From: an uncultured Actinobacillus sp.
GTDB taxonomy: Bacteria > Pseudomonadota > Gammaproteobacteria > Enterobacterales > Pasteurellaceae
DNA length: 24,000 bases
Reading direction: 5' to 3'
Assembly (NCBI GenBank): GCA_963539805.1
Contig: CAUTMS010000001.1
Location: 118,993 to 142,992, forward strand
A program made the position numbers and the translations under genes. Shown piece by piece: positions 5,129 through 18,168 of this stretch (within the stretch, counting starts at the first letter, position 1; each line of letters begins with the position of its first letter). Below the pieces are notes generated by a model. That model saw nothing but the letters and a program-made list of their open reading frames with translations, was not told the origin of the DNA and made no database searches.

Positions 5129-8029
5129 ATGCCGTTTGCAATCGGTCAGCGTTGGATAAGCGAAAGCGAAAATAATCTGGGATTGGGAGTGATCACAGAG
5201 GTAAACAACCGCACCGTGACGATTTTCTTCCCCGCCGCCGAAGAGACGCGGATTTATGCTGCGGCCGGCGCACCGCTGACTCGCGTGCTGTTTAATGCGG
5301 GCGATACGGTCACTCACCGGCAAGGCTGGCAGGCGCAAGTGATGGAAATTACGGTCAATAATTTGACCGCACTTTATCGGGTTAAACGGCTGGATAACGG
5401 TGAAGAAGCGGTGTGGAAAGAAATGGATCTCGCCCATCAAATCCGCTTCAGCAAACCGCAGGATCGCCTGTTCGGCGGGCAAATCGATCGCAGCGACCGT
5501 TTTGCCTTGCGTTATCAGGCGTTATTGCATCAACAGGCGCAATTTCAATCTCCTTTGCGTGGCTTGCGCGGTATTCGGGCGGGATTAATTCCCCATCAGT
5601 TGCATATTGCGAAAGAAGTGGGGCAACGCCTTCATCCGCGCGTATTGCTGGCGGACGAAGTGGGATTAGGGAAAACCGTGGAAGCGGGCATGATTTTACA
5701 GCAACAAATTTTCGCCGGACGAGCGGACAGAGTGCTGATTATTGTGCCGGAAACCTTGCAACATCAATGGCTGCTGGAAATGTTGCGTCGTTTCAATTTG
5801 CATTTTTCCTTATTTGACGAAGAACGGGCGGCGGATTTTGCCGCGACGGAGGAGAGGGACGAACGTAATCCCTTCGACAGCGAAAATTTGATTATTTGTT
5901 CGCTGGATTGGCTGATTTCCCAGCCTAAACGAGGGGAACAGGCATTGCGGGCGCAATTCGATTTACTGATTGTCGACGAAGCGCATCACCTGGCATGGAC
6001 GCCGGAAGCCGTCAGTCCGGAATATCGGCTGGTTGAAGGTTTGGCGAAGCGGATTCCATCCGTCCTGCTGCTAACGGCGACACCGGAACAATTAGGTCAG
6101 CAAAGCCATTTTGCGCGTTTGAAATTATTGGATGCGGATCGTTTTTATGACTACGACGCGTTTGTTGCCGAACAACGGCATTATCGGCCGGTGGCGGAGG
6201 CGGTGCAAACCCTGTTGGCGGAGAAACCGTTAAGTGCGGCGGAAAAAAACGCGATTTCCGATTTATTGGCGGAACAGGATACGGAGCCGCTGTTTAACGC
6301 GTTGGACAGCCGGAATGAAGCGGAAAAAGCCTCGGCTCGTCAGGATCTGATCAGCAGTCTGATTGACCGCCACGGCACCAGCCGCGTGCTGTTCCGTAAT
6401 ACGCGCCGAGGCGTGAAAGGCTTTCCGCGTCGGGTTTATCACCAAATCAATCTGGCGCTGCCGAAACAATACGTTGAAGCCGTTACAGCGGCCTGTTTGT
6501 CAGGCGAAAATCCGGAACATGACTTGTTTTATCCGGAACCTCTGTTTTGCTATAAGGAACAGGGAAACAAATGGTGGAATTTCGATCCGCGCGTGGAATG
6601 GTTGATCACTTTTTTGAAAAATCATCGCAATGAAAAAGTGCTGGTGATTTGCCGACAGGCTCAAACGGCGATTCGACTGGAACAGGCGTTGCGCGAAAAA
6701 GAAGGTCTTCGCAGTGCGGTCTTCCATGAAAATTTATCCGTTATTGAGCGGGATCGTGCCGCCGCTTATTTTGCCGATCAGGAAAACGGCGCACAGGTTC
6801 TGTTAAGTTCCGCTATCGGTTCCGAAGGGCGAAACTTTCAGTTTGCCTGCCGTTTGGTGCTGTTTAATTTGCCGGAAAATCCGGATTTATTGGAACAATG
6901 TATCGGGCGCTTGGATCGTATCGGGCAACAGCGGGATGTCCAAATTTACGCGCTCTGTTTCGCGGATTCACCGCAAAGGGTGCTGACGGATTGGTATCAT
7001 CAAGGGTTAAATGCGTTTGAGGAAACCTGTCCGATGGGCGCGGCGTTATTTGAAAAGTGCGGTCAAAAATTGCGAAGTTTTTTGCAACATCCTACCGAAT
7101 CGGCGGGCTTTGATAGGTTCCTGAAGGAAACCGAGAAGCAGCGTTTACAGCTGAAAAGGGAACTGGAAGAGGGGCGCGATCGTTTGTTGGAACTGAATTC
7201 AAACGGCGGTGACGAGGCGCAACGGCTGGCCGAGGCGATTCGGGAGGAAGATTACGATACCGGGTTGGTAAATTTCGCCCTGAATCTGTTTGATGTTATC
7301 GGCGTGGAACAAGAAGATTCGGGCGAAAAATCCATTGTGATTACACCGACGGGCACCATGTTGATACCGGATTTTCCGGGGCTGAAGGAAGACGGCGTCA
7401 CGGTAACCTTTGATCGCGAGTTGGCATTAGCTAGGGAAGAACTGGAATTTTTAACCTGGGATCATCCGATGTTGCGTAACGGTATTGATTTAGTGGTTTC
7501 CGGCGATATCGGCAAAACGGCGGCGTCATTGCTGATTAACGATAAATTGCCGCCCGGCACGTTGCTGCTGGAATTGATTTATGTGGTGGAAAGTCAGGCG
7601 CCGAAAGGCTTGCAACTTAATCGTTTCTTACCGCCTACGCCGCTACGTTTGTTGCTGGACGGTAAAGGTCGGGATTTGGCGGCGCAAGTGAGTTTTAGCC
7701 GGTTGGAAAGGCAGTTAAAGCCAATGGATAAATATGCGGCGAATAAAATGGTGAAAATGGTCCGTCCGAATATCGGAAAAATGCTGGTCATGGCGGAACA
7801 ACAGGCTGCCGAGCGGGCAAAAGCGGTGATTGCAGAGGCGCAACAACAGGCGGATTCGGCGTTAAGCCATGAGCTTAATCGTCTGAACGGGCTAAAAAGT
7901 GTCAATAAAAATATTCGTCAGGACGAAATTGACAACCTGGAAACGCTTCGCATTCAATCTTTGTCGGCGCTGGCGAAGGCGAATTGGCGGCTGGACAGCT
8001 TACGCGTGATCGTGAGCAATAAATCGTGA
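5129..8029 (+). CDS. rapA: RNA polymerase-associated SNF2-family ATPase RapA (HepA)
   Basis: The N-terminus [21 protein letters not shown] is characteristic of RapA. Helicase motifs are present: [11 protein letters not shown], the DEAH box in LIVDEAHHL, and a C-terminal helicase domain. 966 aa. Confidence 0.95.
5366..5374 (-). repeat. Uptake signal sequence core (inside rapA)
   Basis: Exact ACCGCACTT. Confidence 0.9.
7055..7063 (+). repeat. Uptake signal sequence core (inside rapA)
   Basis: Exact AAGTGCGGT. Confidence 0.9.
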
Positions 8030-8197: not shown

Positions 8198-8299
8198 TAA
8201 ATCTGATATATGTAGCAACACGCCGACGAGATATTTTCCGCTTCGTCGGCGCAAACACAATATAATCCGATTAAAAGCGCTTATCATGGAGTGCAGCCT

Positions 8300-9262
8300 A
8301 TGAAAAAATTATTCAAACTCTCTCTTGTTACTGGTATGGCTTTAGCGTCGCTAAATGTTCATGCCGAAGAAAAATTCATCACTATCGGGACCGGTGGTCA
8401 AACCGGCGTGTATTATGTGGTGGGTCAGTCTATTTGTCAGTTAGTGAATCGTGATACGGCGAAAACCGGCGTGAAATGTAATGCGCCTTCAACCGGCGCT
8501 TCCGTGGCGAATCTGAACGCCATTGCCGATCATCAAATGGACATGGGAATTGCCCAATCCGACTGGCAATATCACGCCTATAACGGTTCAAGTTCTTTTG
8601 AAGGTAAGAAAAACGAAAAATTACGTGCCGTTTTCTCGCTTCATCCGGAACCGTTTACATTAATGGTGCGTGATGATTCCGGTATTAAATCTTTTGACGA
8701 TCTGAAAGGCAAACGTGTGAATGTGGGCGATCCGGGCTCGGGCACCCGCGCCACCATGAATGTTATTCTGGCGGCTAAAGGCTGGACGGATAAGGATTTC
8801 AAAGTGGCTTCCGAATTAAAACCGGCGGAAATGGCCTCTGTAATGTGTGATAACAATCTGGACGCGATTACCTATAATGTGGGCCATCCGAACGGGGCGC
8901 TGAAAGAAGCGGCGGCTTCCTGCGATTCTCATTTGGTGCCGGTAACGGGCGAAGCCATCGATAAATTGGTGGCGGATCATTCTTACTATGCGAAAGCCGT
9001 GATTCCGGGCGAATTATACAAAGGCACTGACAATCCGGTGGAAACTTTCGGGGTGTATGCGACGTTGGTGACCTCCGAAGATGTGGATGCGGATAAAGTT
9101 TACGCGGTAGTGAAAGCGGTGTTCGATAATTTTGACCGTTTTAAACGCTTGCATCCGGCGTTTGCCAACCTGAAACAGGAAGAGATGATCACCAACGCCT
9201 TATCCGCACCTTTGCATGAAGGCGCCGTCCGTTATTACAAGGAACGTGGTTGGATTAAATAA
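8300..9262 (+). CDS. TAXI-family TRAP transporter solute receptor (periplasmic binding protein)
   Basis: Signal peptide MKKLFKLSLVTGMALASLNVHA followed by ITIGTGGQTGVYYVVG, typical of TAXI receptors. The start is set at the ATG at 8300, with GGAG at 8288-8291. Confidence 0.85.
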   Translation: MKKLFKLSLVTGMALASLNVHAEEKFITIGTGGQTGVYYVVGQSICQLVNRDTAKTGVKCNAPSTGASVANLNAIADHQMDMGIAQSDWQYHAYNGSSSFEGKKNEKLRAVFSLHPEPFTLMVRDDSGIKSFDDLKGKRVNVGDPGSGTRATMNVILAAKGWTDKDFKVASELKPAEMASVMCDNNLDAITYNVGHPNGALKEAAASCDSHLVPVTGEAIDKLVADHSYYAKAVIPGELYKGTDNPVETFGVYATLVTSEDVDADKVYAVVKAVFDNFDRFKRLHPAFANLKQEEMITNALSAPLHEGAVRYYKERGWIK

Positions 9263-9279
9263 AATCTCTCGTTTTTTTA

Positions 9280-9346
9280 ACCGCACTTTTTCTTGATTTC
9301 GGCGCGCTGTGCGTAGCTATCAACGTAAAAGTGCGGTCGTTTTTTT
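9280..9346 (+). terminator. Inverted USS pair plus T-run between the receptor and permease genes; candidate intercistronic attenuator/terminator
   Basis: ACCGCACTTTT (9280-9290) pairs with AAAAGTGCGGT (9327-9337) across a 36-nt loop, followed by a T7 run at 9340-9346. Confidence 0.5.
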
Positions 9347-9409
9347 GTTATTTTTTCTCCTTGTCGCTCGAATCGGCTACGGGGAGTGTTACTTGGAAGG
9401 AACCCGTCT

Positions 9410-12052
9410 ATGTCAGCAGATATGTCAGCCAAAAAATCGATTGATTATGATGATTTACAGGACATGGTGGCGTCAAATGATGCCGGGGGGCGCACGCCTC
9501 GCGGTTTTGCCAAAAAACTCATTGTTGTCACCGCTATTTTGTGGTCCGTTTTTCAACTTTATTACACTTCGCCGCTGCCTTATTGGTTGCAGGAAGTGCT
9601 AACCCATCACGGATGGGATATTAATGTGGTGGTGGACGACACCAAAGCGCGCTCTATTCATCTGGCGTTTGCTTTGTTTCTTGCTTATCTGTCGTTTCCG
9701 GCCTTCGCCACTTCGCCGAAGCAGCATATTCCGACGCTTGACTGGATTCTGGCGGTGAGCGGCGCATTTTTAGGGGCGTATTACCTGTTTTTCTACGAAG
9801 GACTAGTGAAACGTTTCGGTGCGCCTAATCTGCAGGATATTATTGCGGGCTGTTGCGGCGTGTTGTTATTGCTGGAGGCGACCCGTCGCAGTTTAGGTTT
9901 GCCGTTGGTGGTCATTGCCGTCGTGTTTTTGTTGTATAACTTTTTCGGCCAATATTTGCCGACGGATTGGATCATCAGTCATCGTTCCGGTTCACTGTCT
10001 CAAATTGTCAACCAGCAATGGATTACTACGGAAGGCGTGTTCGGCGTGGCATTAGGGGTTTCGACCAAATACGTGTTCCTGTTCGTGCTGTTCGGCGCAT
10101 TGCTGGATAAAGCGGGAGCGGGCAACTATTTTATCAAAACCGCTTTTGCTTATCTCGGACATTTAAGCGGCGGCCCGGCGAAAGCGGCGGTCGTATCTTC
10201 CGCTTTAACCGGCTTGGTTTCGGGCTCTTCCATTGCTAATGTGGTGACGACCGGAACCTTCACAATCCCAATGATGAAGCGCGTGGGCTTTACGCCGGAA
10301 AAAGCGGGTGCCGTTGAGGTCGCGTCTTCGGTAAACGGTCAGCTTATGCCGCCGGTCATGGGGGCCGCCGCCTTCCTGATGATCGAATACGTCAATATGC
10401 CTTACAGCGAATTGATTGTTCACGCCTTTTTGCCGGCGCTTATTTCGTATATCGCCTTGGTTTATATCGTCCATATTGAAGCCTGCAAAATGGGGCTGAA
10501 AGGCTTGCCGAGAACCGATCCGCCAAAACCTCTGCTGATGGTGCTGATTCGCGTGCTGGCGTCGTTTCTGGTGATTTGCGTAACCTATTTTATTCTCGAA
10601 TTTTGCCTCGGCTGGATTAAACGTGCGGCGCCCGATTTTTCGTTCCTGATTGTCAGTGTATTATTGTTCGCGGCGTATTTATTGCTGATTCGCCGTGTAG
10701 CCCGTTTTCCGGATTTAGAACCGGATGACCCGAATGCCAAAATCGCCGTCTTGCCGTCCGTGAAGCCGACGGTGAATGCCGGATTGCATTATTTGCTGCC
10801 GGTGGTAGTGCTGATGTGGTGTCTGATGATTGAACGTATGTCGCCGGGATTATCGGCGTTCTGGGGGACTTTGGCATTGGGCATGATTTTGTTGACACAG
10901 CGTCCGTTGCTCAGCCTGTTCCGAAAAAGTCACGAAAATCTGACCGCACTTTTCCGTCAGGGATTGCAAGAATTGGTTGACGGTTTGGAAACCGGCGCGC
11001 GGAATATGATCGGGATCGGTATTGCTACCGCCACCGCCGGTATTATCGTCGGTTCGGTGTCGTTGACGGGCTTCGGCGTACAGTTGGCGAGCATCATCGA
11101 ATATCTGTCCATGGGTAATATTTTGCTGATGTTGATTTTGGTGGCGATATTCAGTTTGATTCTCGGTATGGGATTACCGACCACGGCGAACTATATCGTA
11201 GTGTCTTCGCTGATGGCGTTGGTGATTGTTGAAGTGGGTAAACAAAACGGCCTTATCGTGCCGCTTATCGCCGTGCATATGTTCGTTTTCTATTTCGGGA
11301 TTATGGCGGATGTCACCCCGCCGGTGGGCCTGGCGTCCTTTGCCGCTGCGGCGATTTCGGGCGGCAGTCCGATTAAAACCGGGGTGGAAGCCTTTTATTA
11401 CAGCCTGCGTACCGCTATTTTGCCGTTCCTGTTCATCTTCAATACGGATTTATTGCTGATTGATGTGGGTTGGGCGAAAGGCATATTGGTTTTCGTTGTG
11501 GCGGTGATCGGGATTATGGCCTTTACCGCCGCCAGCATGGGATATTTCTTCCGTTTCAATAAACGTTGGGAAACCGTGTTGCTGCTATTTGCCGCGTTTA
11601 TGCTGTTTCGTCCGGGATTTTTCATGCAGCATATTTCGCCGACGGAGCGGTATATCGAACCGGCGAAACTGGTGCAGGAAATCGGACAAACGCCGGTGGG
11701 ACGAAACCTCACCCTTAAAGTGGCGGGTGTGAATCCTTACGGCAAGCCTATCGAATTTTATTCTCAACTTAGCGTACCGGAAGGAAAAACGGGCGAAGAA
11801 CGTTTGGAAAATCTCGGCCTGACCTTGCTGGATACCGGGGAAAAAATTGAAATCAACGGTGTTGAAACGCCAAAAATCCTGATTGATAATGTTACCCTCG
11901 ATTCGCCTGCGGCCAAAGCCGGCCTGAATTGGGATCAAACCATTATCGAAGTGGCGGTGCCGCAAAATTCTTTAGCGAAAGAATGGATGTTTATCCCCGC
12001 CTTGTTATTGATTGCGGGCATTGTCTGGAATCAGCGCCGCCGTCCGGAATAG
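9410..12052 (+). CDS. TRAP transporter fused permease (TAXI-associated 4TM/12TM fusion) with a C-terminal extra-membrane extension
   Basis: About 880 aa and highly hydrophobic. Motifs include GSSIANVVTTGTFTIPMMKR and GIMADVTPPVGLASFAAA. The start is set at the ATG at 9410, with GGAAGGA upstream. The last ~150 aa are soluble-like and end in one further TM helix. Confidence 0.85.
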   Translation: MSADMSAKKSIDYDDLQDMVASNDAGGRTPRGFAKKLIVVTAILWSVFQLYYTSPLPYWLQEVLTHHGWDINVVVDDTKARSIHLAFALFLAYLSFPAFATSPKQHIPTLDWILAVSGAFLGAYYLFFYEGLVKRFGAPNLQDIIAGCCGVLLLLEATRRSLGLPLVVIAVVFLLYNFFGQYLPTDWIISHRSGSLSQIVNQQWITTEGVFGVALGVSTKYVFLFVLFGALLDKAGAGNYFIKTAFAYLGHLSGGPAKAAVVSSALTGLVSGSSIANVVTTGTFTIPMMKRVGFTPEKAGAVEVASSVNGQLMPPVMGAAAFLMIEYVNMPYSELIVHAFLPALISYIALVYIVHIEACKMGLKGLPRTDPPKPLLMVLIRVLASFLVICVTYFILEFCLGWIKRAAPDFSFLIVSVLLFAAYLLLIRRVARFPDLEPDDPNAKIAVLPSVKPTVNAGLHYLLPVVVLMWCLMIERMSPGLSAFWGTLALGMILLTQRPLLSLFRKSHENLTALFRQGLQELVDGLETGARNMIGIGIATATAGIIVGSVSLTGFGVQLASIIEYLSMGNILLMLILVAIFSLILGMGLPTTANYIVVSSLMALVIVEVGKQNGLIVPLIAVHMFVFYFGIMADVTPPVGLASFAAAAISGGSPIKTGVEAFYYSLRTAILPFLFIFNTDLLLIDVGWAKGILVFVVAVIGIMAFTAASMGYFFRFNKRWETVLLLFAAFMLFRPGFFMQHISPTERYIEPAKLVQEIGQTPVGRNLTLKVAGVNPYGKPIEFYSQLSVPEGKTGEERLENLGLTLLDTGEKIEINGVETPKILIDNVTLDSPAAKAGLNWDQTIIEVAVPQNSLAKEWMFIPALLLIAGIVWNQRRRPE
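10943..10951 (-). repeat. Uptake signal sequence core (inside permease gene)
   Basis: Exact ACCGCACTT. Confidence 0.9.
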
Positions 12053-12061
12053 GAGCCGAAT

Positions 12062-12487
12062 ATGTATAAAAATTTACTGATTGCCATTGATTTAAATAAT
12101 CTTGATAGCGCGAAATATGTGGTGGACACTTGTTTGAAACTGACGGCGCACGAGGAGAATCCCGTATATCGGGTGGTGACGATTATCGAGCCGATGGACG
12201 ACAGCTTTATTTCCGCTTTTTTGCCGAAAAATTTTGATAAATCGGTGGTGGAAGAAGCCAACAAAGCGCTGCATACTTTTACGGAAGCCAGTTTCCCGAA
12301 AGGAGCAAAAGTGCAGCATATTGTAGCGCACGGCACGATTTACGAAGAAATCAATCGTATTGCAGAAGAGAAAAACGTGGATCTTATCGTGATGCTTGCC
12401 AGCAGCAAACCCAACGCCGCGGGTCTTAGCACCAATACGGTGAAAGTGGCGCGATTCTCGGATAAACCGATATTGGTTTTGCGTTAA
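12062..12487 (+). CDS. Universal stress protein (UspA family)
   Basis: 141 aa. It starts with the Usp-like N-terminal strand YKNLLIAIDL and has a C-terminal LIVMLAS...G...VKVARFSDKPILVL segment. AGGAG lies 6 nt upstream, and the gene starts 9 nt after the permease stop. Confidence 0.75.
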   Translation: MYKNLLIAIDLNNLDSAKYVVDTCLKLTAHEENPVYRVVTIIEPMDDSFISAFLPKNFDKSVVEEANKALHTFTEASFPKGAKVQHIVAHGTIYEEINRIAEEKNVDLIVMLASSKPNAAGLSTNTVKVARFSDKPILVLR

Positions 12488-12490
12488 TCC

Positions 12491-12530
12491 AAGTGCGGTC
12501 AAAAATTCTTTCGTTTTTTTGACCGCACTT
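12491..12530 (+). terminator. Inverted USS pair terminator after the usp gene
   Basis: A 15-bp perfect stem AAGTGCGGTCAAAAA (12491-12505) / TTTTTGACCGCACTT (12516-12530) with a 10-nt loop. Confidence 0.75.
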
Positions 12531-12585
12531 TTACTGATTTTCATCAAGCGTTTCCCGATAAGCGCAGTTTAAAAAGGACGTATTC

Positions 12586-12857
12586 ATGAAAAACTTTGCG
12601 AAATTTACCCTGTGGACGGGGGTGTTGTTAACGGCGTCGGTGCAGGCGAAAGGCTGGACGTACGATGATTTCCGCGCATGGTAACGGAATTGCCGAGTGA
12701 ACTTGCCGGTATGAACTGCCGCAATTATCCGGATGTAATCACTTACCGTGGCGATAATCCGAACGATATGTTCAAAGAAGGCGAGAACGAATACGAGATT
12801 GAGACCCATTTGGTGTCAGTCACCGGCGCAGAAACTGATAAGCTGATATGGAGATGA
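12586..12857 (+). pseudogene. Small secreted protein gene apparently split by a 1-nt frameshift (hand-translated ORFs 12586-12684 and 12678-12857)
   Basis: ORF1 reads MKNFAKFTLWTGVLLTASVQAKGWTYDDFRAW-stop, a signal peptide with VQA-K cleavage. ORF2 in the next frame reads MVTELPSELAGMNCRNYPDVITYRGDNPNDMFKEGENEYEIETHLVSVTGAETDKLIWR-stop and has no RBS of its own. Both fall below the ORF-track cutoff. Function unknown. Confidence 0.4.
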
Positions 12858-12858
12858 A

Positions 12859-13479
12859 ATGATGATCAAAAAAGTCGTAGAAGAATATCTAAATCAAATT
12901 CAGGTAGAAAAATATTCAATCATTATTATCAATCCTCTTGATGAGATATCTATTATTTCCAATCAGCCACAAGCCTGGGAACAGGATTTCATTAAAATGA
13001 AACTGCATTTGAGAAGTAATATAGTTTTAAAAGCGAAAGAAAAAATAACGCCGTTCTGGTGGTCGGCGGAAAGTGCGGATAATGAAGTATGTAGAAAATT
13101 AGTGGAAAAATATAAAATTCGCTGCGGAATTACCTTTGTCATGAAGATAAAATGTGAGCATGTTATTTTTACCTTATATTTTAATGAAAACGACCCAAAT
13201 TTTTTTAATTTATATCAAAAAGAAAAACACAGAATTTTGTTTGAGATCCTTAGTCTGTTTGAGGAAAATTATAAACGAGAGCCAATAGTTAGTCTCACTG
13301 GTAGAGAGAAAGAGGTGTTAGACCTGCTAAAAATAGGGAAGACATATTCGGAAATAGGAATGATTTTAGGGGTGACGGAAAGGACGGTCAGATTCCATAT
13401 CACCAATGTATTGGCTAAACTGGATGTTACTTCTGTGAAATATGCTATTGTGAAAGCTATGGTTGAAGGTATTATCTGA
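12859..13479 (+). CDS. LuxR-family transcriptional regulator: quorum-sensing-type N-terminal ligand-binding-like domain plus C-terminal GerE/LuxR HTH
   Basis: The C-terminus LTGREKEVLDLLKIGKTYSEIGMILGVTERTVRFHITNVLAKL is a LuxR-type HTH. It carries the invariant E150/L154/G160 spacing (TraR E178/L182/G188). The N-terminus keeps the spacing W40-x3-F44-x8-S53-N54-x13-W68, which equals TraR W57-Y61-D70-P71-W85. Confidence 0.8.
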   Translation: MMIKKVVEEYLNQIQVEKYSIIIINPLDEISIISNQPQAWEQDFIKMKLHLRSNIVLKAKEKITPFWWSAESADNEVCRKLVEKYKIRCGITFVMKIKCEHVIFTLYFNENDPNFFNLYQKEKHRILFEILSLFEENYKREPIVSLTGREKEVLDLLKIGKTYSEIGMILGVTERTVRFHITNVLAKLDVTSVKYAIVKAMVEGII

Positions 13480-13491
13480 TAGTCTCAATAT

Positions 13492-13533
13492 AATAAGAGG
13501 TAAACCCTTTTACTACGGGAATTGCCTCTTATT
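13492..13533. terminator. Candidate bidirectional hairpin between the convergent luxR-family gene and the operon end
   Basis: AATAAGAGG (13492-13500) pairs with CCTCTTATT (13525-13533). The loop is long at 24 nt, so this is only a moderate candidate. Confidence 0.4.
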
Positions 13534-13537
13534 ATGA

Positions 13538-13984
13538 TTACTTTTTAAAATTTATGATTATTGCCCCGATAATAACAAAAATTACACCGGTAACGCGAGC
13601 AACGGATATTGAATGTACCGGTACGTTAAGTAAACCGAATTTATCAATTACTAATGCTGCGATAACCTGCCCTGCTACCACTAAAACCAGAAAATTAGCA
13701 GCGCCGATAAGCGGTATGGCGAATGTCCCAATTACAAGAAATGCAACACCCATAGCCCCACCTAACCATGCCCACCACGGAGCGCTTAAGATTGTGTCGT
13801 TTGGTAACGGAGCCTTGAAGATAAGAATAAGAAACACCATGAGAACGATACTTACCAGAGCGGAAACCAGAGATGCCGTTACCGGGTTTCCCAGAATTTT
13901 CGATAATTCCGCGTTAGCGCCTCCCTGTATAGGTAATGCAACCCCTGCCAGAAAGGCACAGATTAAACTAATAACGTATTGCAT
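13538..13984 (-). CDS. Small DMT-superfamily inner-membrane transporter (YdcZ/DUF606-like); putative exporter
   Basis: 148 aa and entirely hydrophobic, with 4-5 predicted helices. The N-terminus LAGVALPIQGGANAELSKILGNPVTASLVS resembles the YdcZ family. The start is set at the ATG at 13984, with AAGGA upstream, 11 nt after the HAD stop. Confidence 0.55.
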   Translation of the reverse strand: MQYVISLICAFLAGVALPIQGGANAELSKILGNPVTASLVSALVSIVLMVFLILIFKAPLPNDTILSAPWWAWLGGAMGVAFLVIGTFAIPLIGAANFLVLVVAGQVIAALVIDKFGLLNVPVHSISVARVTGVIFVIIGAIIINFKK

Positions 13985-13995
13985 ATTTCTAATCC

Positions 13996-14688
13996 TTACC
14001 ATAAGCTGGAATTTAATAAACATCTATCAACCCGAAGGATAATATCTTTTGTAATATCAGTGAATTTATTTACCATGCATTTAACACCAGTATTTATCAT
14101 TTCTTCCCGCTGAAAATTATGCGGCATTGATGCAGGAACACCAATAAAACCGGTATTTAATGCTTTACACACTTCAGCTACTCGGTTTATATCATCAATG
14201 AACACAACTTCATCAAAGTTTAATTTGAATTCTTCTTTTACGATTTCAAATACACCGGGGCGGAAAGCATTGATATCAATATAAGGCTTATCTTTGTCAA
14301 AATATTTCGCATAGGGTGCTAAAAAACGATCAAAACTATACTCTTTATTTCGCCCACCATAACAGGTTAGTTTTGCTCCCGTGCTATTTAATAACGCTAA
14401 TGTTGATTCAATACCAGCGCGAACCTGTACTGGATGATCTTTAATATACTGTTCTCGTATTTTAAAGAAATCTTTAATGACTTTTTCACCGGAGTAAGGA
14501 AGTTTACAGGCAAGTGCCAGATTATGACCGGCTGTGATTTGAGGTGAACCCCATACGCTACGTTCAATTAACGGCGTATATTCTACACCCAGAGATTCAA
14601 CAAATATTTTTATTGCCGGACTGTATGTGTCATTTAGCACAACTCCGTCACTATCAATAGCAAAAAGTTTAATTTTTTTCAATTTCAT
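13996..14688 (-). CDS. HAD-superfamily hydrolase (putative phosphatase)
   Basis: Motif I FAIDSDGVV has the DxD nucleophile pair at D12/D14, and motif IV is VVFIDDIN. 230 aa. AAGGA RBS, 11 nt after the ketosynthase stop. Confidence 0.7.
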   Translation of the reverse strand: MKLKKIKLFAIDSDGVVLNDTYSPAIKIFVESLGVEYTPLIERSVWGSPQITAGHNLALACKLPYSGEKVIKDFFKIREQYIKDHPVQVRAGIESTLALLNSTGAKLTCYGGRNKEYSFDRFLAPYAKYFDKDKPYIDINAFRPGVFEIVKEEFKLNFDEVVFIDDINRVAEVCKALNTGFIGVPASMPHNFQREEMINTGVKCMVNKFTDITKDIILRVDRCLLNSSLW

Positions 14689-14699
14689 AGAATTATCCT

Positions 14700-15917
14700 T
14701 TATTCATATTTAGAAAAGATTAAGGCGGCATTTTGGCCACCAAATCCAACAGAAGTACTGAGTACATTTTTCACATGAATATCACTGATCGTATTAGTGG
14801 CAATTTTAACTTTTATTTCTTTATCAATGTTTCTTAAACCTGCAACTGGTGGAATTTTATTATTTACGATTTTTAATATCGAGAACACGGCCTCTATTGC
14901 ACCTGAGGCTGCCAAACTATGTCCTGTAACCCCCTTTGTTGACGTCACATAAGCACTTTTACCAAAAAAATCATATAGAACTTTTCCCTCAATACGATCA
15001 TTAAGTAGTGTTGATGTGCCATGTGCATTGATACACTGAATATCGGTAGATTCCAGTACGGCATCGTTTAAGGCTGCACAGATGGATACTGAAAGCCCAG
15101 AACCATTAGGTGATGGTGATGTAATATGATATGAATCATTAGCTGAACCATATCCAGCTACTGAAGCATAAATTTTCGCTTTACGATCTAAAGCCGATGT
15201 TTCTTTCTCTAGGACAAGCATTGCTGCACCCTCTGAAATAACAAAGCCATCTCTTTCATTATCAAAGGGCCGTGATGAATAGGCTAGATTAGTATTTTTA
15301 GAAAGGGCTCCGATCTTTGTAAAGGAGGATACAACCAGCGGCGTTATAGGTGCTTCACTTCCGCCAGCAAGAACAATATCACATATCCCATTTTCTATGA
15401 GATATTTGCCCATCCCAATAGAATCAGTTCCAGATGCACATGCCGTTCCGATAAGATAAGTTGGTCCTTTTATACCGAGTTCAATAGCAATATTTCCAGT
15501 TGCCATACTTCCCATTGTAGAAAGTAAATATAACGAACCTATAGTGCCAACTCCTTCGTTATATGCTCTTTTGTTTAATTTCTCAACAGAAGTGACACCT
15601 GCCAGTGAATTACCTAAAATGACCCCGACTTTAACGGTTTTATTATCAATATCTAACTTTGCGTCTTCAATGGCTTTTTTTGCTGCATAGAGAGCATATT
15701 GAATAAACGGATCAATTCTCCATATCAGTGATTTATTCAAGCAATCTGAGGGAGTAAAATTTTTGATAGGGCAGGACCATGATACGTCAAGAGTATTCAA
15801 ACGATTATCAATGATCGTCATACTTTTTCCTTTAATCAGATTTTCCCAACACTCGTCAGGAGTAAGGCCGGCAGAAGAAATAATTCCCATACCGGTAACA
15901 ACAACTTTATGTTTCAT
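14700..15917 (-). CDS. Beta-ketoacyl-ACP synthase, FabF/FabB-like (KAS I/II type)
   Basis: The N-terminus is KVVVTGMGIISSAG. The catalytic triad context is intact: GTACASG (Cys), NAHGTST (His) and TGHSLAASG (His). The start is set at the ATG at 15917, with AAAGGTG upstream. Confidence 0.85.
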   Translation of the reverse strand: MKHKVVVTGMGIISSAGLTPDECWENLIKGKSMTIIDNRLNTLDVSWSCPIKNFTPSDCLNKSLIWRIDPFIQYALYAAKKAIEDAKLDIDNKTVKVGVILGNSLAGVTSVEKLNKRAYNEGVGTIGSLYLLSTMGSMATGNIAIELGIKGPTYLIGTACASGTDSIGMGKYLIENGICDIVLAGGSEAPITPLVVSSFTKIGALSKNTNLAYSSRPFDNERDGFVISEGAAMLVLEKETSALDRKAKIYASVAGYGSANDSYHITSPSPNGSGLSVSICAALNDAVLESTDIQCINAHGTSTLLNDRIEGKVLYDFFGKSAYVTSTKGVTGHSLAASGAIEAVFSILKIVNNKIPPVAGLRNIDKEIKVKIATNTISDIHVKNVLSTSVGFGGQNAALIFSKYE

Positions 15918-15935
15918 GTTATGCACCTTTCAATC

Positions 15936-16157
15936 CTATTTTTTCAGCTCTTTTACTCTCTTACTTATTGTTTGTAATGTGTCATTGTTAACTAAAGACA
16001 AACTACCTTCGGATAAACCAAATTCTCGTTCAATTTCTATTTGAAATTCAACTATGCATATTGAATCTAGTCCTATGCTTTCGAGTGGTTCGTCATTTTT
16101 AATATTATTTTCTGACACACCAAAAGTTTCAGTTAATATTGTTTCTAATTTTTCCAT
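15936..16157 (-). CDS. Acyl carrier protein (dedicated, discrete)
   Basis: 73 aa and acidic. It has the phosphopantetheine attachment motif GLDSI (Ser32). Its start overlaps the upstream gene's stop by 13 nt. Confidence 0.8.
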   Translation of the reverse strand: MEKLETILTETFGVSENNIKNDEPLESIGLDSICIVEFQIEIEREFGLSEGSLSLVNNDTLQTISKRVKELKK

Positions 16158-17053
16158 ATATTCCTCTCGATCTTTAATTTTAAACTTGCCATAATAGATT
16201 CATTTTGAAGTACATTGACATTAAAAAAATATATGTCTTTATATAAAGATACCTTTTGAATTTTAACAATTGCAGGTATATTGATTTCGACGTAATTAAA
16301 AAAATCTCCATCAATTTCAGTAGGTATGAAGTATCCTATATTTTCATGCATCTTCGATAAATAGTAATAGCATAATTGTTTCGCAGCCTCAGTTAAGTTC
16401 ATCCCCGTTATATGATCCTGTTCATGATCATTAAATGATTTATTATTTTTATTAATGTTAATAATAGTACTGATATAAGGGGGAGTATCATGTAAACGTG
16501 TCAAAATCACATTCCTTGTTGAGTTATAGCATACGCTCTCAGGTTGTAAATTCTCTTTTAATTCTATTTGTTGAGGACTGGTTTGAATATTTTTGCGGAT
16601 TAATTTATAGCTGGCAGAACTCACATATGTAACATTTATTTTTATTTCACTTATTACTCTGTCATTTTTACTGAAAATAATGTTAAATACATTTTTTGTC
16701 ATTTTTTGGTTAATAGAATTTTTAGTAAAAATATCTACTTTAATATTATTGGAATTTCTCAATGGGGTTATATTATAATTAATAGACCAATTTCTAAGTA
16801 GAAATTTTGAATCTAAACATATACCAAATTCTTTATGAGACAAATATGTTTCAATCTGCCGAGCGCACTCTAATAAATAAAGAGGATTTATAAACCCTAT
16901 TGAAGCGTTAAAATCGGAATAAAATGGGTGATCATTTATTACACGACAATCGGATTGAAATCTTTTATTTGAAACTCGTAAAATATTTTCGATAAACACT
17001 TCACTATCATTTAATTTATGAGTGTATAATTTCAAATCTTTTAAATTTTCCAC
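16145..17053 (-). CDS. AfsA-like protein (two A-factor-biosynthesis hotdog repeats); predicted beta-ketoacyl-ACP:DHAP acyltransferase / butenolide synthase
   Basis: 302 aa, the same size as AfsA/ScbA/MmfL. Repeat 1 has DHPFY (41-45) and NPLYLLECARQ (56-66). Repeat 2 has NDHEQDHITGMNLTEAAKQ (208-226). These match the AfsA repeat signatures DHPFF...DPLL..EA.RQ and NDHVPGMLLLEAARQ as I recall them. GTG start at 17053 with AAGGAGG 5 nt upstream. Confidence 0.7.
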   Translation of the reverse strand: MENLKDLKLYTHKLNDSEVFIENILRVSNKRFQSDCRVINDHPFYSDFNASIGFINPLYLLECARQIETYLSHKEFGICLDSKFLLRNWSINYNITPLRNSNNIKVDIFTKNSINQKMTKNVFNIIFSKNDRVISEIKINVTYVSSASYKLIRKNIQTSPQQIELKENLQPESVCYNSTRNVILTRLHDTPPYISTIININKNNKSFNDHEQDHITGMNLTEAAKQLCYYYLSKMHENIGYFIPTEIDGDFFNYVEINIPAIVKIQKVSLYKDIYFFNVNVLQNESIMASLKLKIERNIWKN

Positions 17054-17099
17054 AGTTCCTCCTTTTAGTTTTATTAAATACCTATTAATGAGTAATGAA

Positions 17100-17119
17100 A
17101 ACTGTCAGTTTTGACAGGT
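17100..17119 (-). promoter_or_regulatory. lux-box-like dyad upstream of the AfsA-like operon
   Basis: The minus strand reads ACCTGTCAAAACTGACAGTT. It contains a perfect inverted repeat, CTGTCA (17102-17107) and TGACAG (17112-17117), and fits the CTG-N10-CAG architecture. It is identical at 13/20 positions to the V. fischeri lux box ACCTGTAGGATCGTACAGGT as I recall it. A 5/6 match to the -10 hexamer, TTTAAT (17078-17073), places the dyad centre near -43. Confidence 0.5.
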
Positions 17120-17186
17120 TAGACAGTAAAGAGTATTTATAAACCTTAGCATGAGAATGTTTGTGCATTTTGATGATTACATGTAA

Positions 17187-17426
17187 GGAACGGATAATCC
17201 GGTGGAAACTTTCGGGGTTTACGCCACGTTGGTGACCTCGGAAGAGGTGCCGGCGGATAAAGTGTATGCCGTGGTAAAGGCGGTTTTTGACAATTTCGAT
17301 CGTTTCAAACGCACTCACCCGGCGTTCGCTCATCTTAGCAAGGAAGAGATGATTCATAATGCTTTGTCGGCGCCGTTACATGAGGGCGCGGCACGTTATT
17401 ATCGCGAACAGGGTTGGCTAAAATAA
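17187..17426 (+). pseudogene. 3' remnant (last 79 codons) of a second TAXI-family TRAP solute-receptor gene
   Basis: [21 protein letters not shown]...YYREQGWLK-stop is collinear with residues encoded at 9023-9262 of the intact receptor gene. 63 of 74 residues are identical over the track ORF. An in-frame TAA sits at 17184-17186 and no 5' part is present. Confidence 0.85.
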
Positions 17427-17464
17427 TTCTGACGGTATAATGTCAGGCATTTTGTGGTCGCAAT

Positions 17465-17490
17465 CGTGTTTTTTCCGACGAAAAAACACG
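17465..17490 (+). terminator. Hairpin terminator downstream of the TAXI remnant
   Basis: CGTGTTTTTT (17465-17474) pairs with AAAAAACACG (17481-17490) across the loop CCGACG, followed by ATTTTACTTTTT. Confidence 0.6.
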
Positions 17491-17508
17491 ATTTTACTTT
17501 TTATTATT

Positions 17509-18168
17509 ATGGCATTAATTGAATACAATCCGCCTCAAACACTTTATTTGAACGTTGTTTATCACGATAATCACATGCTTGTGCTGAATAAACCCAGCGG
17601 GCTGCTGTCCGTACCGGGTAATCAGCCGCAGTATTATGACAGCGCCATGAGCCGGGTGAAAGAAAAATACGGATTTTGCGAACCCGCTCACCGCCTGGAT
17701 ATGGCAACCAGCGGCATTATTCTGTTCGCCATGAGCAAACTGGCGGACAGCGAGCTGAAACGTCAGTTTCGCGAACGGCAAACGAAAAAATTTTATCAGG
17801 CGTTGGTGTGGGGACATGTTAAACCGGACAACGGTACGGTAAATTTGCCGCTGATTTGCGATTGGGAAAACCGCCCGCGCCAGCGCATCGATTTCAATTC
17901 GGGCAAAAGTGCGGTCACAAAATTTGAAGTTTTAGAACGTTTGCCGAATAACAGCACGCGGGTGAAGTTAACGCCGATTACCGGTCGTTCCCATCAGTTG
18001 CGGCTGCATATGCTGGCGTTAGGACATCCTATTTTAGGCGATAAGTTTTATGCTCCTCCGCAGGCGAAAGCCATGGCGCCGCGTTTGTATCTGCATGCGG
18101 AAAGTTTAACCGTTACGCATCCGGTTACGGGGGAATCCATGACCTTTTATTGTCCTGCGGATTTTTAA
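17509..18168 (+). CDS. rluA: 23S rRNA/tRNA pseudouridine synthase RluA
   Basis: Close collinear match to E. coli RluA: NPPQ, VLNKPSGLLSVPG, HRLDMATSG, ELKRQFRER, LPLICDWENRP, PITGRSHQLRLHMLALGHPILGD, ending PADF. The start is set at the ATG at 17509. Confidence 0.9.
   Translation: MALIEYNPPQTLYLNVVYHDNHMLVLNKPSGLLSVPGNQPQYYDSAMSRVKEKYGFCEPAHRLDMATSGIILFAMSKLADSELKRQFRERQTKKFYQALVWGHVKPDNGTVNLPLICDWENRPRQRIDFNSGKSAVTKFEVLERLPNNSTRVKLTPITGRSHQLRLHMLALGHPILGDKFYAPPQAKAMAPRLYLHAESLTVTHPVTGESMTFYCPADF
17907..17915 (+). repeat. Uptake signal sequence core (inside rluA)
   Basis: Exact AAGTGCGGT. Confidence 0.9.

Follow-up and report, generated by a model that had tools for sequence, protein, structure and literature searches.

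A 24,000-nucleotide stretch of the genome of an uncultured Actinobacillus sp. of the family Pasteurellaceae (assembly GCA_963539805.1, contig CAUTMS010000001.1, positions 118,993 to 142,992; hereafter the window, with positions counted from its first nucleotide) carries an island in which a gene for a LuxR-type regulator converges on a five-gene operon. The operon codes for an AfsA-like synthase, an acyl carrier protein (ACP), a FabF-like beta-ketoacyl-ACP synthase (KS), a HAD-superfamily protein and a DMT-type transporter. The island is probably, although with considerable room for doubt, a self-contained, horizontally mobile cell-cell signalling cassette that makes an autoinducing signal of the butenolide or furan type and perceives it through a LuxR-type instead of a TetR-type receptor. 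This reading is strengthened by three independent lines of evidence, namely the pairing of receptor gene and operon across families, a conserved operator and a clade-specific signature in the receptor pocket. A preliminary description of the sequence had proposed a butenolide/gamma-butyrolactone-type cassette with a LuxR-type receptor. That interpretation is supported, the product and its relation to the receptor being inferred from the sequences; pairing, operator box, pocket and HAD protein speak for the proposal, and a saturated butyrolactone is less likely with no reductase in the cassette.

Gene content of the cassette

The six open reading frames (ORFs) lie where the preliminary description had placed them. 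The regulator (206 amino acids; 12859-13479, plus strand) combines domains PF03472 and PF00196. The operon, on the minus strand, codes in the order of transcription for the AfsA-like double-hotdog synthase (302 amino acids; 16145-17053), a dedicated ACP (73 amino acids; 15936-16157) whose translation contains the phosphopantetheine-attachment serine in an LDS motif, the KS (405 amino acids from ATG; 14700-15917, ORF to 15926), the HAD-superfamily protein (230 amino acids; 13996-14688), a putative butenolide-phosphate phosphatase by motifs and homology, and a putative inner-membrane exporter of the DMT_YdcZ family (148 amino acids from ATG; 13538-13984, ORF to 14023). From afsA to the exporter gene, a 13-nt overlap of the AfsA and ACP genes is followed by gaps of 18, 11 and 11 nt; these tight junctions, too, had been described, and they are exact with the ATG starts of the KS (15917) and DMT (13984) genes, which independent gene callers also picked.

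The anticipated Pfam domains were recovered in the AfsA-like protein (PF03756 twice, E 1.4e-28), the ACP (PF00550, E 7.4e-9), the KS (PF00109, E 8e-44; PF02801, E 9e-27), the exporter (PF04657, E 2.1e-37) and the regulator (PF03472 and PF00196). The match of the 302-amino-acid protein to the AfsA domain, on which the earlier proposal had staked itself, is significant. HAD models (PF00702 and PF13419) gave matches under their gathering scores only.

All six genes are intact and under purifying selection. Between the window and a second variant from Exercitatus varius (= Bisgaard Taxon 10/6; Pasteurellaceae), with 88-96% amino acid identity, dN/dS was 0.04-0.25 for the six genes (0.09 for luxR, 0.04 for the DMT gene), which resembles the flanking housekeeping genes. 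A domain scan of the cassette proteins found no oxidoreductase, i.e. no BprA- or short-chain dehydrogenase/reductase (SDR)-type reductase, and no third biosynthetic enzyme of the MmfH type; the lack of a reductase makes a butenolide or furan likelier than a saturated gamma-butyrolactone. No LuxI-type gene was present among the ORFs of the window or at any cassette locus inspected, and no TetR-family (ArpA/ScbR) gene in the island or the related cassettes inspected.

Conservation of the receptor-operon pairing

Protein-database matches included homologs of the AfsA-like protein (33-55% identity) and of LuxR (40-68%) from Klebsiella, Citrobacter braakii, Salmonella enterica subsp. diarizonae, Serratia fonticola and Vibrio mimicus, and these matches define the distribution given here. 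A profile scan of genome contigs with the AfsA alignment, which used very stringent patterns and returned three loci only, added Phytobacter sp. V69 and Klebsiella sp. I138. Every locus of sufficient length shows the order AfsA-ACP-KS-HAD-transporter with a convergent luxR gene coding for 204-210 amino acids, and the layout is the same whether a locus was reached from AfsA or from LuxR, in Pasteurellaceae, Enterobacterales and Vibrionaceae alike. All cassette components diverge in one rank order. The AfsA clade is tiny, with about 9 of 852 family representatives (1.84 billion proteins) scoring better than E 1e-55, and an E-value gap from 1e-43 to 4e-10 sets the LuxR clade apart from other LuxR proteins.

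Outside the Pasteurellaceae the cassette adjoins phage-type integrases, AlpA, type IV secretion system genes or insertion sequence (IS) elements; in PLSDB no proteobacterial plasmid with the cassette was found, the matches being from Streptomyces only. The cassette is not peculiar to the Pasteurellaceae; it is a mobile gammaproteobacterial cassette of which the Pasteurellaceae form is a reduced variant. The form found in enteric bacteria, Vibrio and Serratia has an exporter of the MFS type and, between exporter and LuxR, a split transketolase (PF00456 + PF02779; 12213-13871 in locus L001, 12298-13956 in L003 and 9636-11300 in L011), whereas the Pasteurellaceae form has the DMT_YdcZ exporter and no transketolase. 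The transketolase might provide a C2 unit or a different sugar phosphate as acceptor, and since it occurs in one form only, the two variants may make different molecules.

At the locus of the LuxR named from Salmonella diarizonae (L012 11291-12426) the MFS gene is split into ORFs of 251 and 68 amino acids; the exporter is probably a pseudogene there, and the other cassette genes look intact. A more distant AfsA-like protein (30% identity) from the bee gut bacterium Gilliamella (L028 8863-11738) was considered as a member of the LuxR-coupled clade and rejected, as it is accompanied at its locus by ACP and MFS genes only. The Gilliamella locus has no KS, HAD or LuxR gene, and a LysR regulator and an IS integrase lie close by. 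Coupling to LuxR is thus a property of the closer AfsA clade.

Predicted operator and promoter of the afsA operon

A lux-box-like operator, ACCTGTCAAAACTGACAGTT, with a CTG-N10-CAG core is located at 17100-17119 on the minus strand, its center about 56 nt upstream of the afsA start codon. The A/T-rich -10-like element of a putative promoter, TATTTAAT (17073-17080, minus strand), follows 19 nt downstream of the box. The operator is a palindrome of the type CTGTCA-N4/5-GACAG, and the pattern CTGTCANNNNNGACAG is found once in the window, with 0.10 occurrences expected. A CTG-N10-CAG core is also present in the lux box of Vibrio fischeri, ACCTGTAGGATCGTACAGGT.

The box occurs once in each cassette-bearing locus scanned, every time just upstream of afsA, and in none of six empty-site loci. 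The Phytobacter and Klebsiella sp. I138 cassettes carry it too, and the cassette of a Serratia metagenome-assembled genome has it with one mismatch. In an alignment of the otherwise diverged upstream regions of eight loci from several genera, the box is the sole conserved block, and an A/T-rich -10-like element lies 19-20 nt downstream of it in other genera as well. The center of the box precedes the -10-like element by about 30 nt, where a -35 element would be, and this is the geometry of class-II activation by LuxR, LasR and TraR. A simple sigma-70 scan did not call the -10-like element at 17073-17080, in keeping with a promoter that depends on an activator and has no -35 element. The LuxR-type protein probably controls the afsA operon via this predicted box.

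In Klebsiella sp. I138 (locus L027) a second box, CCCTGTCGAAACTGACAGTT on the plus strand (7375-7390), was seen about 90 nt upstream of a gene for a Gram-negative porin (424 amino acids; L027 7478-8752), which lies between a phage-type integrase and the afsA operon and is a possible further regulon member within that island. In a metagenomic variant (L009 8001-8741, and L010) AfsA was called at 246 amino acids, and the box lies 247 nt ahead of the start so assigned; the gene has either been given a wrong start or is disrupted in its N-terminal part.

Receptor

The LuxR-type protein has an N-terminal autoinducer-binding-type domain (PF03472, 28.2 bits against a cutoff of 23) and a C-terminal GerE helix-turn-helix (HTH) domain (PF00196, 54.7 bits, E 7.5e-15). 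When its AF2 model (pLDDT 88.4) was compared with the PDB using Foldseek, all of the top 50 matches were quorum-sensing (QS) LuxR receptors (E down to 6e-14), namely QscR, TraR, LasR, RhlR, SdiA, CviR and YenR, and the predicted fold is that of this receptor group; the profile match to QscR had an E-value of 2e-17.

The six ligand-site positions of N-acylhomoserine lactone (AHL) sensors that constitute the WYDPWG motif, as defined in PMC4414361, were placed by HMMER alignments to LasR, QscR and YenR and by an alignment of 35 sequences (32 from the clade, three from the outgroup). At these positions the protein of the window has W40, F44, S53, N54, W68 and E100, and all 32 clade members read W-F-S-x-W-(D/E/N/A); in these columns the three outgroup proteins have WYDPWG, a confirmation that the alignment is sound. 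The clade keeps both tryptophans and has lost the Asp-Pro pair: the aspartate is a serine in 32 of 32 sequences, and Pro71 and Gly113 are replaced. The motif aspartate forms a hydrogen bond with the AHL amide in TraR, and its loss together with the proline fits a lactone- or furan-type ligand that has no amide. The DNA-binding residues E150, L154 and G160 are spaced (+4/+6) as E178, L182 and G188 of TraR; E150 and G160 are invariant in the 35 aligned sequences.

Putative biosynthetic enzymes

The AfsA-like protein matches PF03756 with 100 bits (cutoff 24) in two tandem hotdog stretches. Because its score to the ScbA/BarX model NF041195 of NCBIfam stays below the equivalog cutoff (116.6 against 200 bits), it is classified, by sequence, as a divergent member of the AfsA family and not as an orthologue of ScbA/BarX. 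The identity to Streptomyces ScbA/BarX proteins is 21-27% in full-length alignment; with one of them (24%, E 6e-26) it has the motif DHxxDH(I/V)xGMxLxEAA(K/R)Q in common. The KS exceeds the cutoff of the KAS II subfamily model PRK07314 (393 against 387 bits) yet misses that of the fabF equivalog TIGR03150 (403 against 494 bits), and is accordingly a specialized paralogue. Its translation contains the Cys-His-His triad motifs ACASG, AHGTST and GHSLAASG of the elongating KAS II type.

The HAD gene is the most conserved gene of the cassette (67-96% among cassette homologs, eight of which share motif I, D12-S-D14, and motif IV, D165-D166, without variation). Against Pfam the protein scored 21.5 bits with PF00702 (E 3.5e-4; gathering score 26.4) and 18.4 bits with PF13419 (gathering score 23.8). 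With an annotated HAD family phosphatase it shares 41% identity (E 2e-61), and with 'HAD family phosphatase' genes of Streptomyces plasmids 33-44% over the full length (E down to 4e-52). In the two Streptomyces regions inspected (L024 and L025) these homologs sit within cassettes that also contain ScbA/BarX, an SDR or glucose dehydrogenase, and ScbR. Their sequences indicate that the cassette HAD protein is orthologous to the HAD proteins of such cassettes; a synthase-HAD pair would then be common to this cassette and the actinomycete hormone cassettes, with the receptor family swapped. Sequence searches of the PDB gave no match for the HAD or the AfsA-like protein.

Position and origin of the island

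The edges of the island (about 4.39 kb, 12797-17184) were set by comparison with island-free strains of the same species, using E. varius contigs that encode an identical Usp protein. Exact matches of the flanking proteins identify the host as E. varius, and the island is strain-variable in this species. Between usp and rluA, six loci have an intact gene for a TAXI-family solute-binding protein (315 amino acids), whereas four loci and the window have the island, with the TAXI gene cut to a C-terminal stub of 74-84 amino acids. The presence/absence polymorphism expected at the usp-rluA locus therefore exists, with the site now narrowed to the second TAXI gene, and the right edge first proposed (17186) is within 2 nt of the measured one.

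In blastn comparisons with the empty-site strain L015, positions 11901-12660 of the window matched L015 7840-8602 with 95% identity, 12641-12796 matched 8979-9135 with 80% only, 17185-17700 matched 9231-9747 with 95%, and 12797-17184 had no match at all. The intact TAXI gene of L015 (8525-9472; 315 amino acids) is represented in the window by 5' remnants at 12583-12796 (plus strand; at 95% as far as 12660, i.e. L015 8602, and at 80% over 12641-12796) and by a 3' stub at 17185-17426 (plus strand; at 95% from L015 9231 on), which includes a 74-amino-acid ORF (17202-17426) with a match to PF16868 (NMT1_3). The island is an insertion plus deletion within the second TAXI gene, which it partly replaces, and not a plain insertion between usp and rluA. 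Just upstream of usp the window encodes a complete TAXI-type TRAP transporter, with a solute receptor at 8291-9262 and a fused permease of 888 amino acids at 9386-12052; what the island destroyed was therefore the gene for a second TAXI solute receptor, adjacent to that system. As the TAXI remnant at 12641-12796 is 80% identical to the island-free allele, compared with 95% for the DNA flanking the island on both sides, the island may have come by homologous recombination, e.g. natural transformation, with flank DNA of a more diverged donor.

Composition bears out the foreign character already proposed for the unit. The GC content is 0.27-0.42 over 13001-17000 and 0.46-0.52 in the adjoining flanks, and none of the 20 Hin-type uptake signal sequences (USS; AAGTGCGGT) of the window lies between 12531 and 17906. 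At the density of the flanks about 4.5 would be expected in the island (Poisson P about 0.01 by our own arithmetic). An inverted USS pair (AAGTGCGGTC...GACCGCACTT; 12491-12530) directly after usp is the last native feature before the TAXI remnant and might fold as a terminator hairpin. Rfam and tRNA scans of the window gave no match, so integration was not tRNA-linked. The neighboring genes for the lipopolysaccharide (LPS) core (heptosyltransferase, Kdo kinase) belong to the native flank and occur in island-free strains too.

Within the island, luxR and the DMT gene converge across a gap of 58 bp that contains an 11-bp perfect inverted repeat (ATAATAAGAGG / CCTCTTATTAT; 13490-13535), a possible bidirectional terminator judging from its sequence. 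Owing to its loop of 24 nt, it escaped the terminator scan.

Proposed pathway and alternative interpretations

In the proposed pathway the KS would condense an acyl starter with malonyl on the dedicated ACP to a beta-ketoacyl-ACP, whose 3-keto group would persist because neither a reductase nor a dehydratase is encoded. The AfsA-like enzyme would move the beta-ketoacyl group onto a hydroxyl of a triose phosphate, which in the A-factor pathway of Streptomyces griseus is dihydroxyacetone phosphate (DHAP; chemistry as summarized in PMC11877004). Spontaneous intramolecular aldol/Knoevenagel closure would give a butenolide phosphate, from which the HAD protein would take off the phosphate, and the DMT transporter would export a 2-acyl-3-hydroxymethyl-butenolide or its furan rearrangement product. 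LuxR would bind this product in the pocket that retains the two tryptophans and has lost the AHL-amide Asp-Pro pair, and the LuxR dimer on the lux-type box would activate the afsA operon, resulting in positive feedback.

Several points weigh against this signalling circuit. Every chemical step, the identity of the product, its role as the LuxR ligand and activation as opposed to repression are deduced from sequence, and the box speaks for control by LuxR, not for the operon product as its ligand. The AfsA-like protein is only 21-27% identical to ScbA/BarX proteins of the characterized type and falls under the equivalog cutoff; its acceptor substrate could, by analogy, differ from DHAP, as Pseudomonas StoB has been proposed to use glyceraldehyde 3-phosphate (PMC7154651). 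For the HAD protein, the Pfam scores are below gathering and the single-sequence AF2 model is unusable (pLDDT 35), so that its assignment rests on motifs and homology. Moreover, the gammaproteobacterial proteins keep D-S-D at motif I where both Streptomyces homologs (L024 6007-6726; L025 5989-6720) have N-I-D, with asparagine at the position of the nucleophile. For these reasons a phosphatase activity of this HAD subfamily does not appear secure. The split transketolase of the enteric and Vibrio versions, which has no counterpart in the Pasteurellaceae version, needs explaining. Finally, the palindrome within the box (17102-17117) and the T-run that follows it score terminator-like. As a primary function this was rejected: the stem has 6 bp only, the distances to afsA and to the -10-like element are fixed in unrelated genomic contexts, and there is no co-directional island gene upstream to terminate.

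Among the alternatives, it is unlikely, though well worth considering, that the operon makes a bioactive butenolide (antimicrobial or host-directed) under LuxR as a pathway-specific regulator, with autoinduction secondary and a main role other than communication. Butenolides of this kind, styrolide and acaterin, are made in Pseudomonas by the AfsA-like StoB (PMC7154651), and the AfsA cluster of Ruegeria pomeroyi is needed to kill competitors. The dedicated exporter, the box-preceded porin of one Klebsiella locus and the transport of the cassette on integrative and conjugative elements (ICEs) and islands, in the manner of fitness cargo, point in the same direction. Such a role sits less well with a minimal cassette that lacks both tailoring enzymes and a separate immunity gene and whose size and logic match pairs of signal synthase and receptor, with a full ligand-binding domain carrying an invariant clade-specific pocket signature, and with the synthase operon as the sole conserved target of the box.

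Improbable, at a clearly lower level, is that LuxR is an eavesdropping solo which responds to a cue from outside, be it foreign AHLs or a compound from the host, by switching on the operon, the product of which is not its ligand. Many LuxR solos, such as SdiA and those of plant-associated bacteria, are sensors of exogenous signals (PMC10134790, PMC4414361), and the link between product and receptor is itself a deduction. The serine in place of the AHL-amide aspartate in 32 of 32 clade members and the replacement of Pro71 and Gly113 argue against AHL sensing, however, and the strict co-inheritance and co-divergence of receptor and synthase in hosts from the respiratory tract, the gut and water argue against a niche-specific cue.

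Some LuxR homologs (EsaR/ExpR) occupy DNA in the ligand-free state and leave it once the ligand binds. Derepression of this kind, with LuxR as a ligand-independent or ligand-released repressor, is very improbable for the present circuit: although one source labels a member of the LuxR clade 'ExpR', the box, centered about 30 nt ahead of the -10-like element as in class-II activation, does not overlap it. It is hardly credible that the operon modifies membrane lipid or LPS by acyl-DHAP-type chemistry, which a KS, an ACP and an acyltransferase-like hotdog protein near LPS core genes could in principle serve, or that the island is a decaying relic, since the LPS genes are native and also present in island-free strains, the HAD partner is of the type found in Streptomyces ScbA/ScbR signalling cassettes, exporter and ligand-type receptor are conserved with the operon, and all genes are intact with dN/dS of 0.04-0.25.

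Relationship to known systems

The signalling cassette favored here resembles the Streptomyces systems AfsA-ArpA, ScbA-ScbR and MmfL/MmfP/MmfH-MmfR in its AfsA-family double-hotdog synthase, in its compact combination of synthase and receptor, in a HAD protein 33-44% identical to those of ScbA/BarX-ScbR cassettes, and in the likely chemistry from beta-ketoacyl-ACP and triose phosphate via a butenolide phosphate to dephosphorylation (PMC11877004). It differs in that the receptor is of the LuxR type (autoinducer-binding domain and GerE HTH) instead of the TetR type and in that it brings its own KS, ACP and exporter; its hosts are Gammaproteobacteria, and its AfsA protein is 21-27% identical to the Streptomyces ones. 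The L024 and L025 regions have ScbR and SDR or glucose dehydrogenase genes, whereas the cassette has no TetR gene, no reductase and no MmfH homolog.

With LuxI/LuxR AHL systems it has in common the fold of QS LuxR receptors, a synthase drawing on acyl-ACP, predicted positive feedback, and a 20-bp lux-type palindrome at class-II distance upstream of the synthase operon. Unlike them, it has no LuxI, the WYDPWG motif is reduced to its two tryptophans, the predicted signal has neither homoserine lactone nor amide, and the receptor is about 30 amino acids shorter than typical LuxR homologs. PpyS/PluR (photopyrones) and DarABC/PauR (dialkylresorcinols) of Photorhabdus likewise couple a LuxR-type receptor with altered WYDPWG to a non-LuxI, ketosynthase-based synthase of an endogenous non-AHL signal (PMC4414361). 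There, however, a pyrone or resorcinol is formed, as opposed to the AfsA-type esterification and aldol closure predicted here, and PluR and PauR keep Y and D (TYDQCS, TYDQYI), whereas the cassette clade keeps the two tryptophans and loses D. In the cassette, moreover, the conserved target of the receptor is the synthase operon, and the whole circuit is mobile across families. The circuit is best classed as signalling by a synthase and a LuxR-type receptor in which AfsA chemistry stands in for LuxI. It is neither an AHL system, for which WYDPWG and LuxI are wanting, nor an actinomycete gamma-butyrolactone system, for which the TetR receptor and the reductase are wanting.

The preliminary description knew of no report of an AfsA-type synthase coupled to a LuxR-type receptor, and the pairing with an autoinducer-binding-domain LuxR is apparently undescribed: none was found in open-access full texts, although subscription journals may hold one. 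That claim has to be qualified by a partial precedent in Rhodococcus erythropolis, in which a LuxR-family regulator activates scbA (PMC13454427); no autoinducer-binding domain is described for that activator, and the TetR-type ScbR is still the receptor. Creamer et al. reported AfsA homologs with HAD and MFS neighbors in Gammaproteobacteria (PMC8209734), and on the megaplasmid of Ruegeria pomeroyi DSS-3 afsA is needed for transcription of its own cluster (bioRxiv 10.1101/766410); neither of these two studies mentions LuxR. A survey of proteobacterial LuxR solos makes no mention of butyrolactone, ketoacyl, acyl carrier, transketolase, hotdog or A-factor. The styrolide clusters of Pseudomonas are larger biosynthetic clusters than the cassette, and for them, too, no LuxR with an autoinducer-binding domain is described as receptor.

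Implications

The chances appear about even that the cassette stands for an unrecognized class of Gram-negative QS, in which an AfsA-made butenolide or furan autoinducer is received by a LuxR protein of the W-F-S-x-W-D/E type and the whole, a plug-in cassette, is spread by islands and ICEs among Pasteurellaceae, Enterobacterales (Klebsiella, Citrobacter, Salmonella diarizonae, Serratia, Phytobacter) and Vibrio. To our knowledge, Pasteurellaceae are generally described as having LuxS/AI-2 signalling only. If the reading is true, it would join actinomycete butyrolactone hormones with their TetR receptors and proteobacterial AHL/LuxR signalling, which are usually taught apart, and research on LuxR solos would gain a well-delimited orphan clade for which a candidate partner synthase, an operator prediction and a pocket motif of diagnostic value are at hand. 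Being compact, complete in itself and mobile in nature, the circuit could also be used as an orthogonal signalling module in synthetic biology. For the bacteria themselves, it would mean a new signal chemistry in Gram-negative QS, including that of clinically relevant Enterobacterales and Pasteurellaceae.

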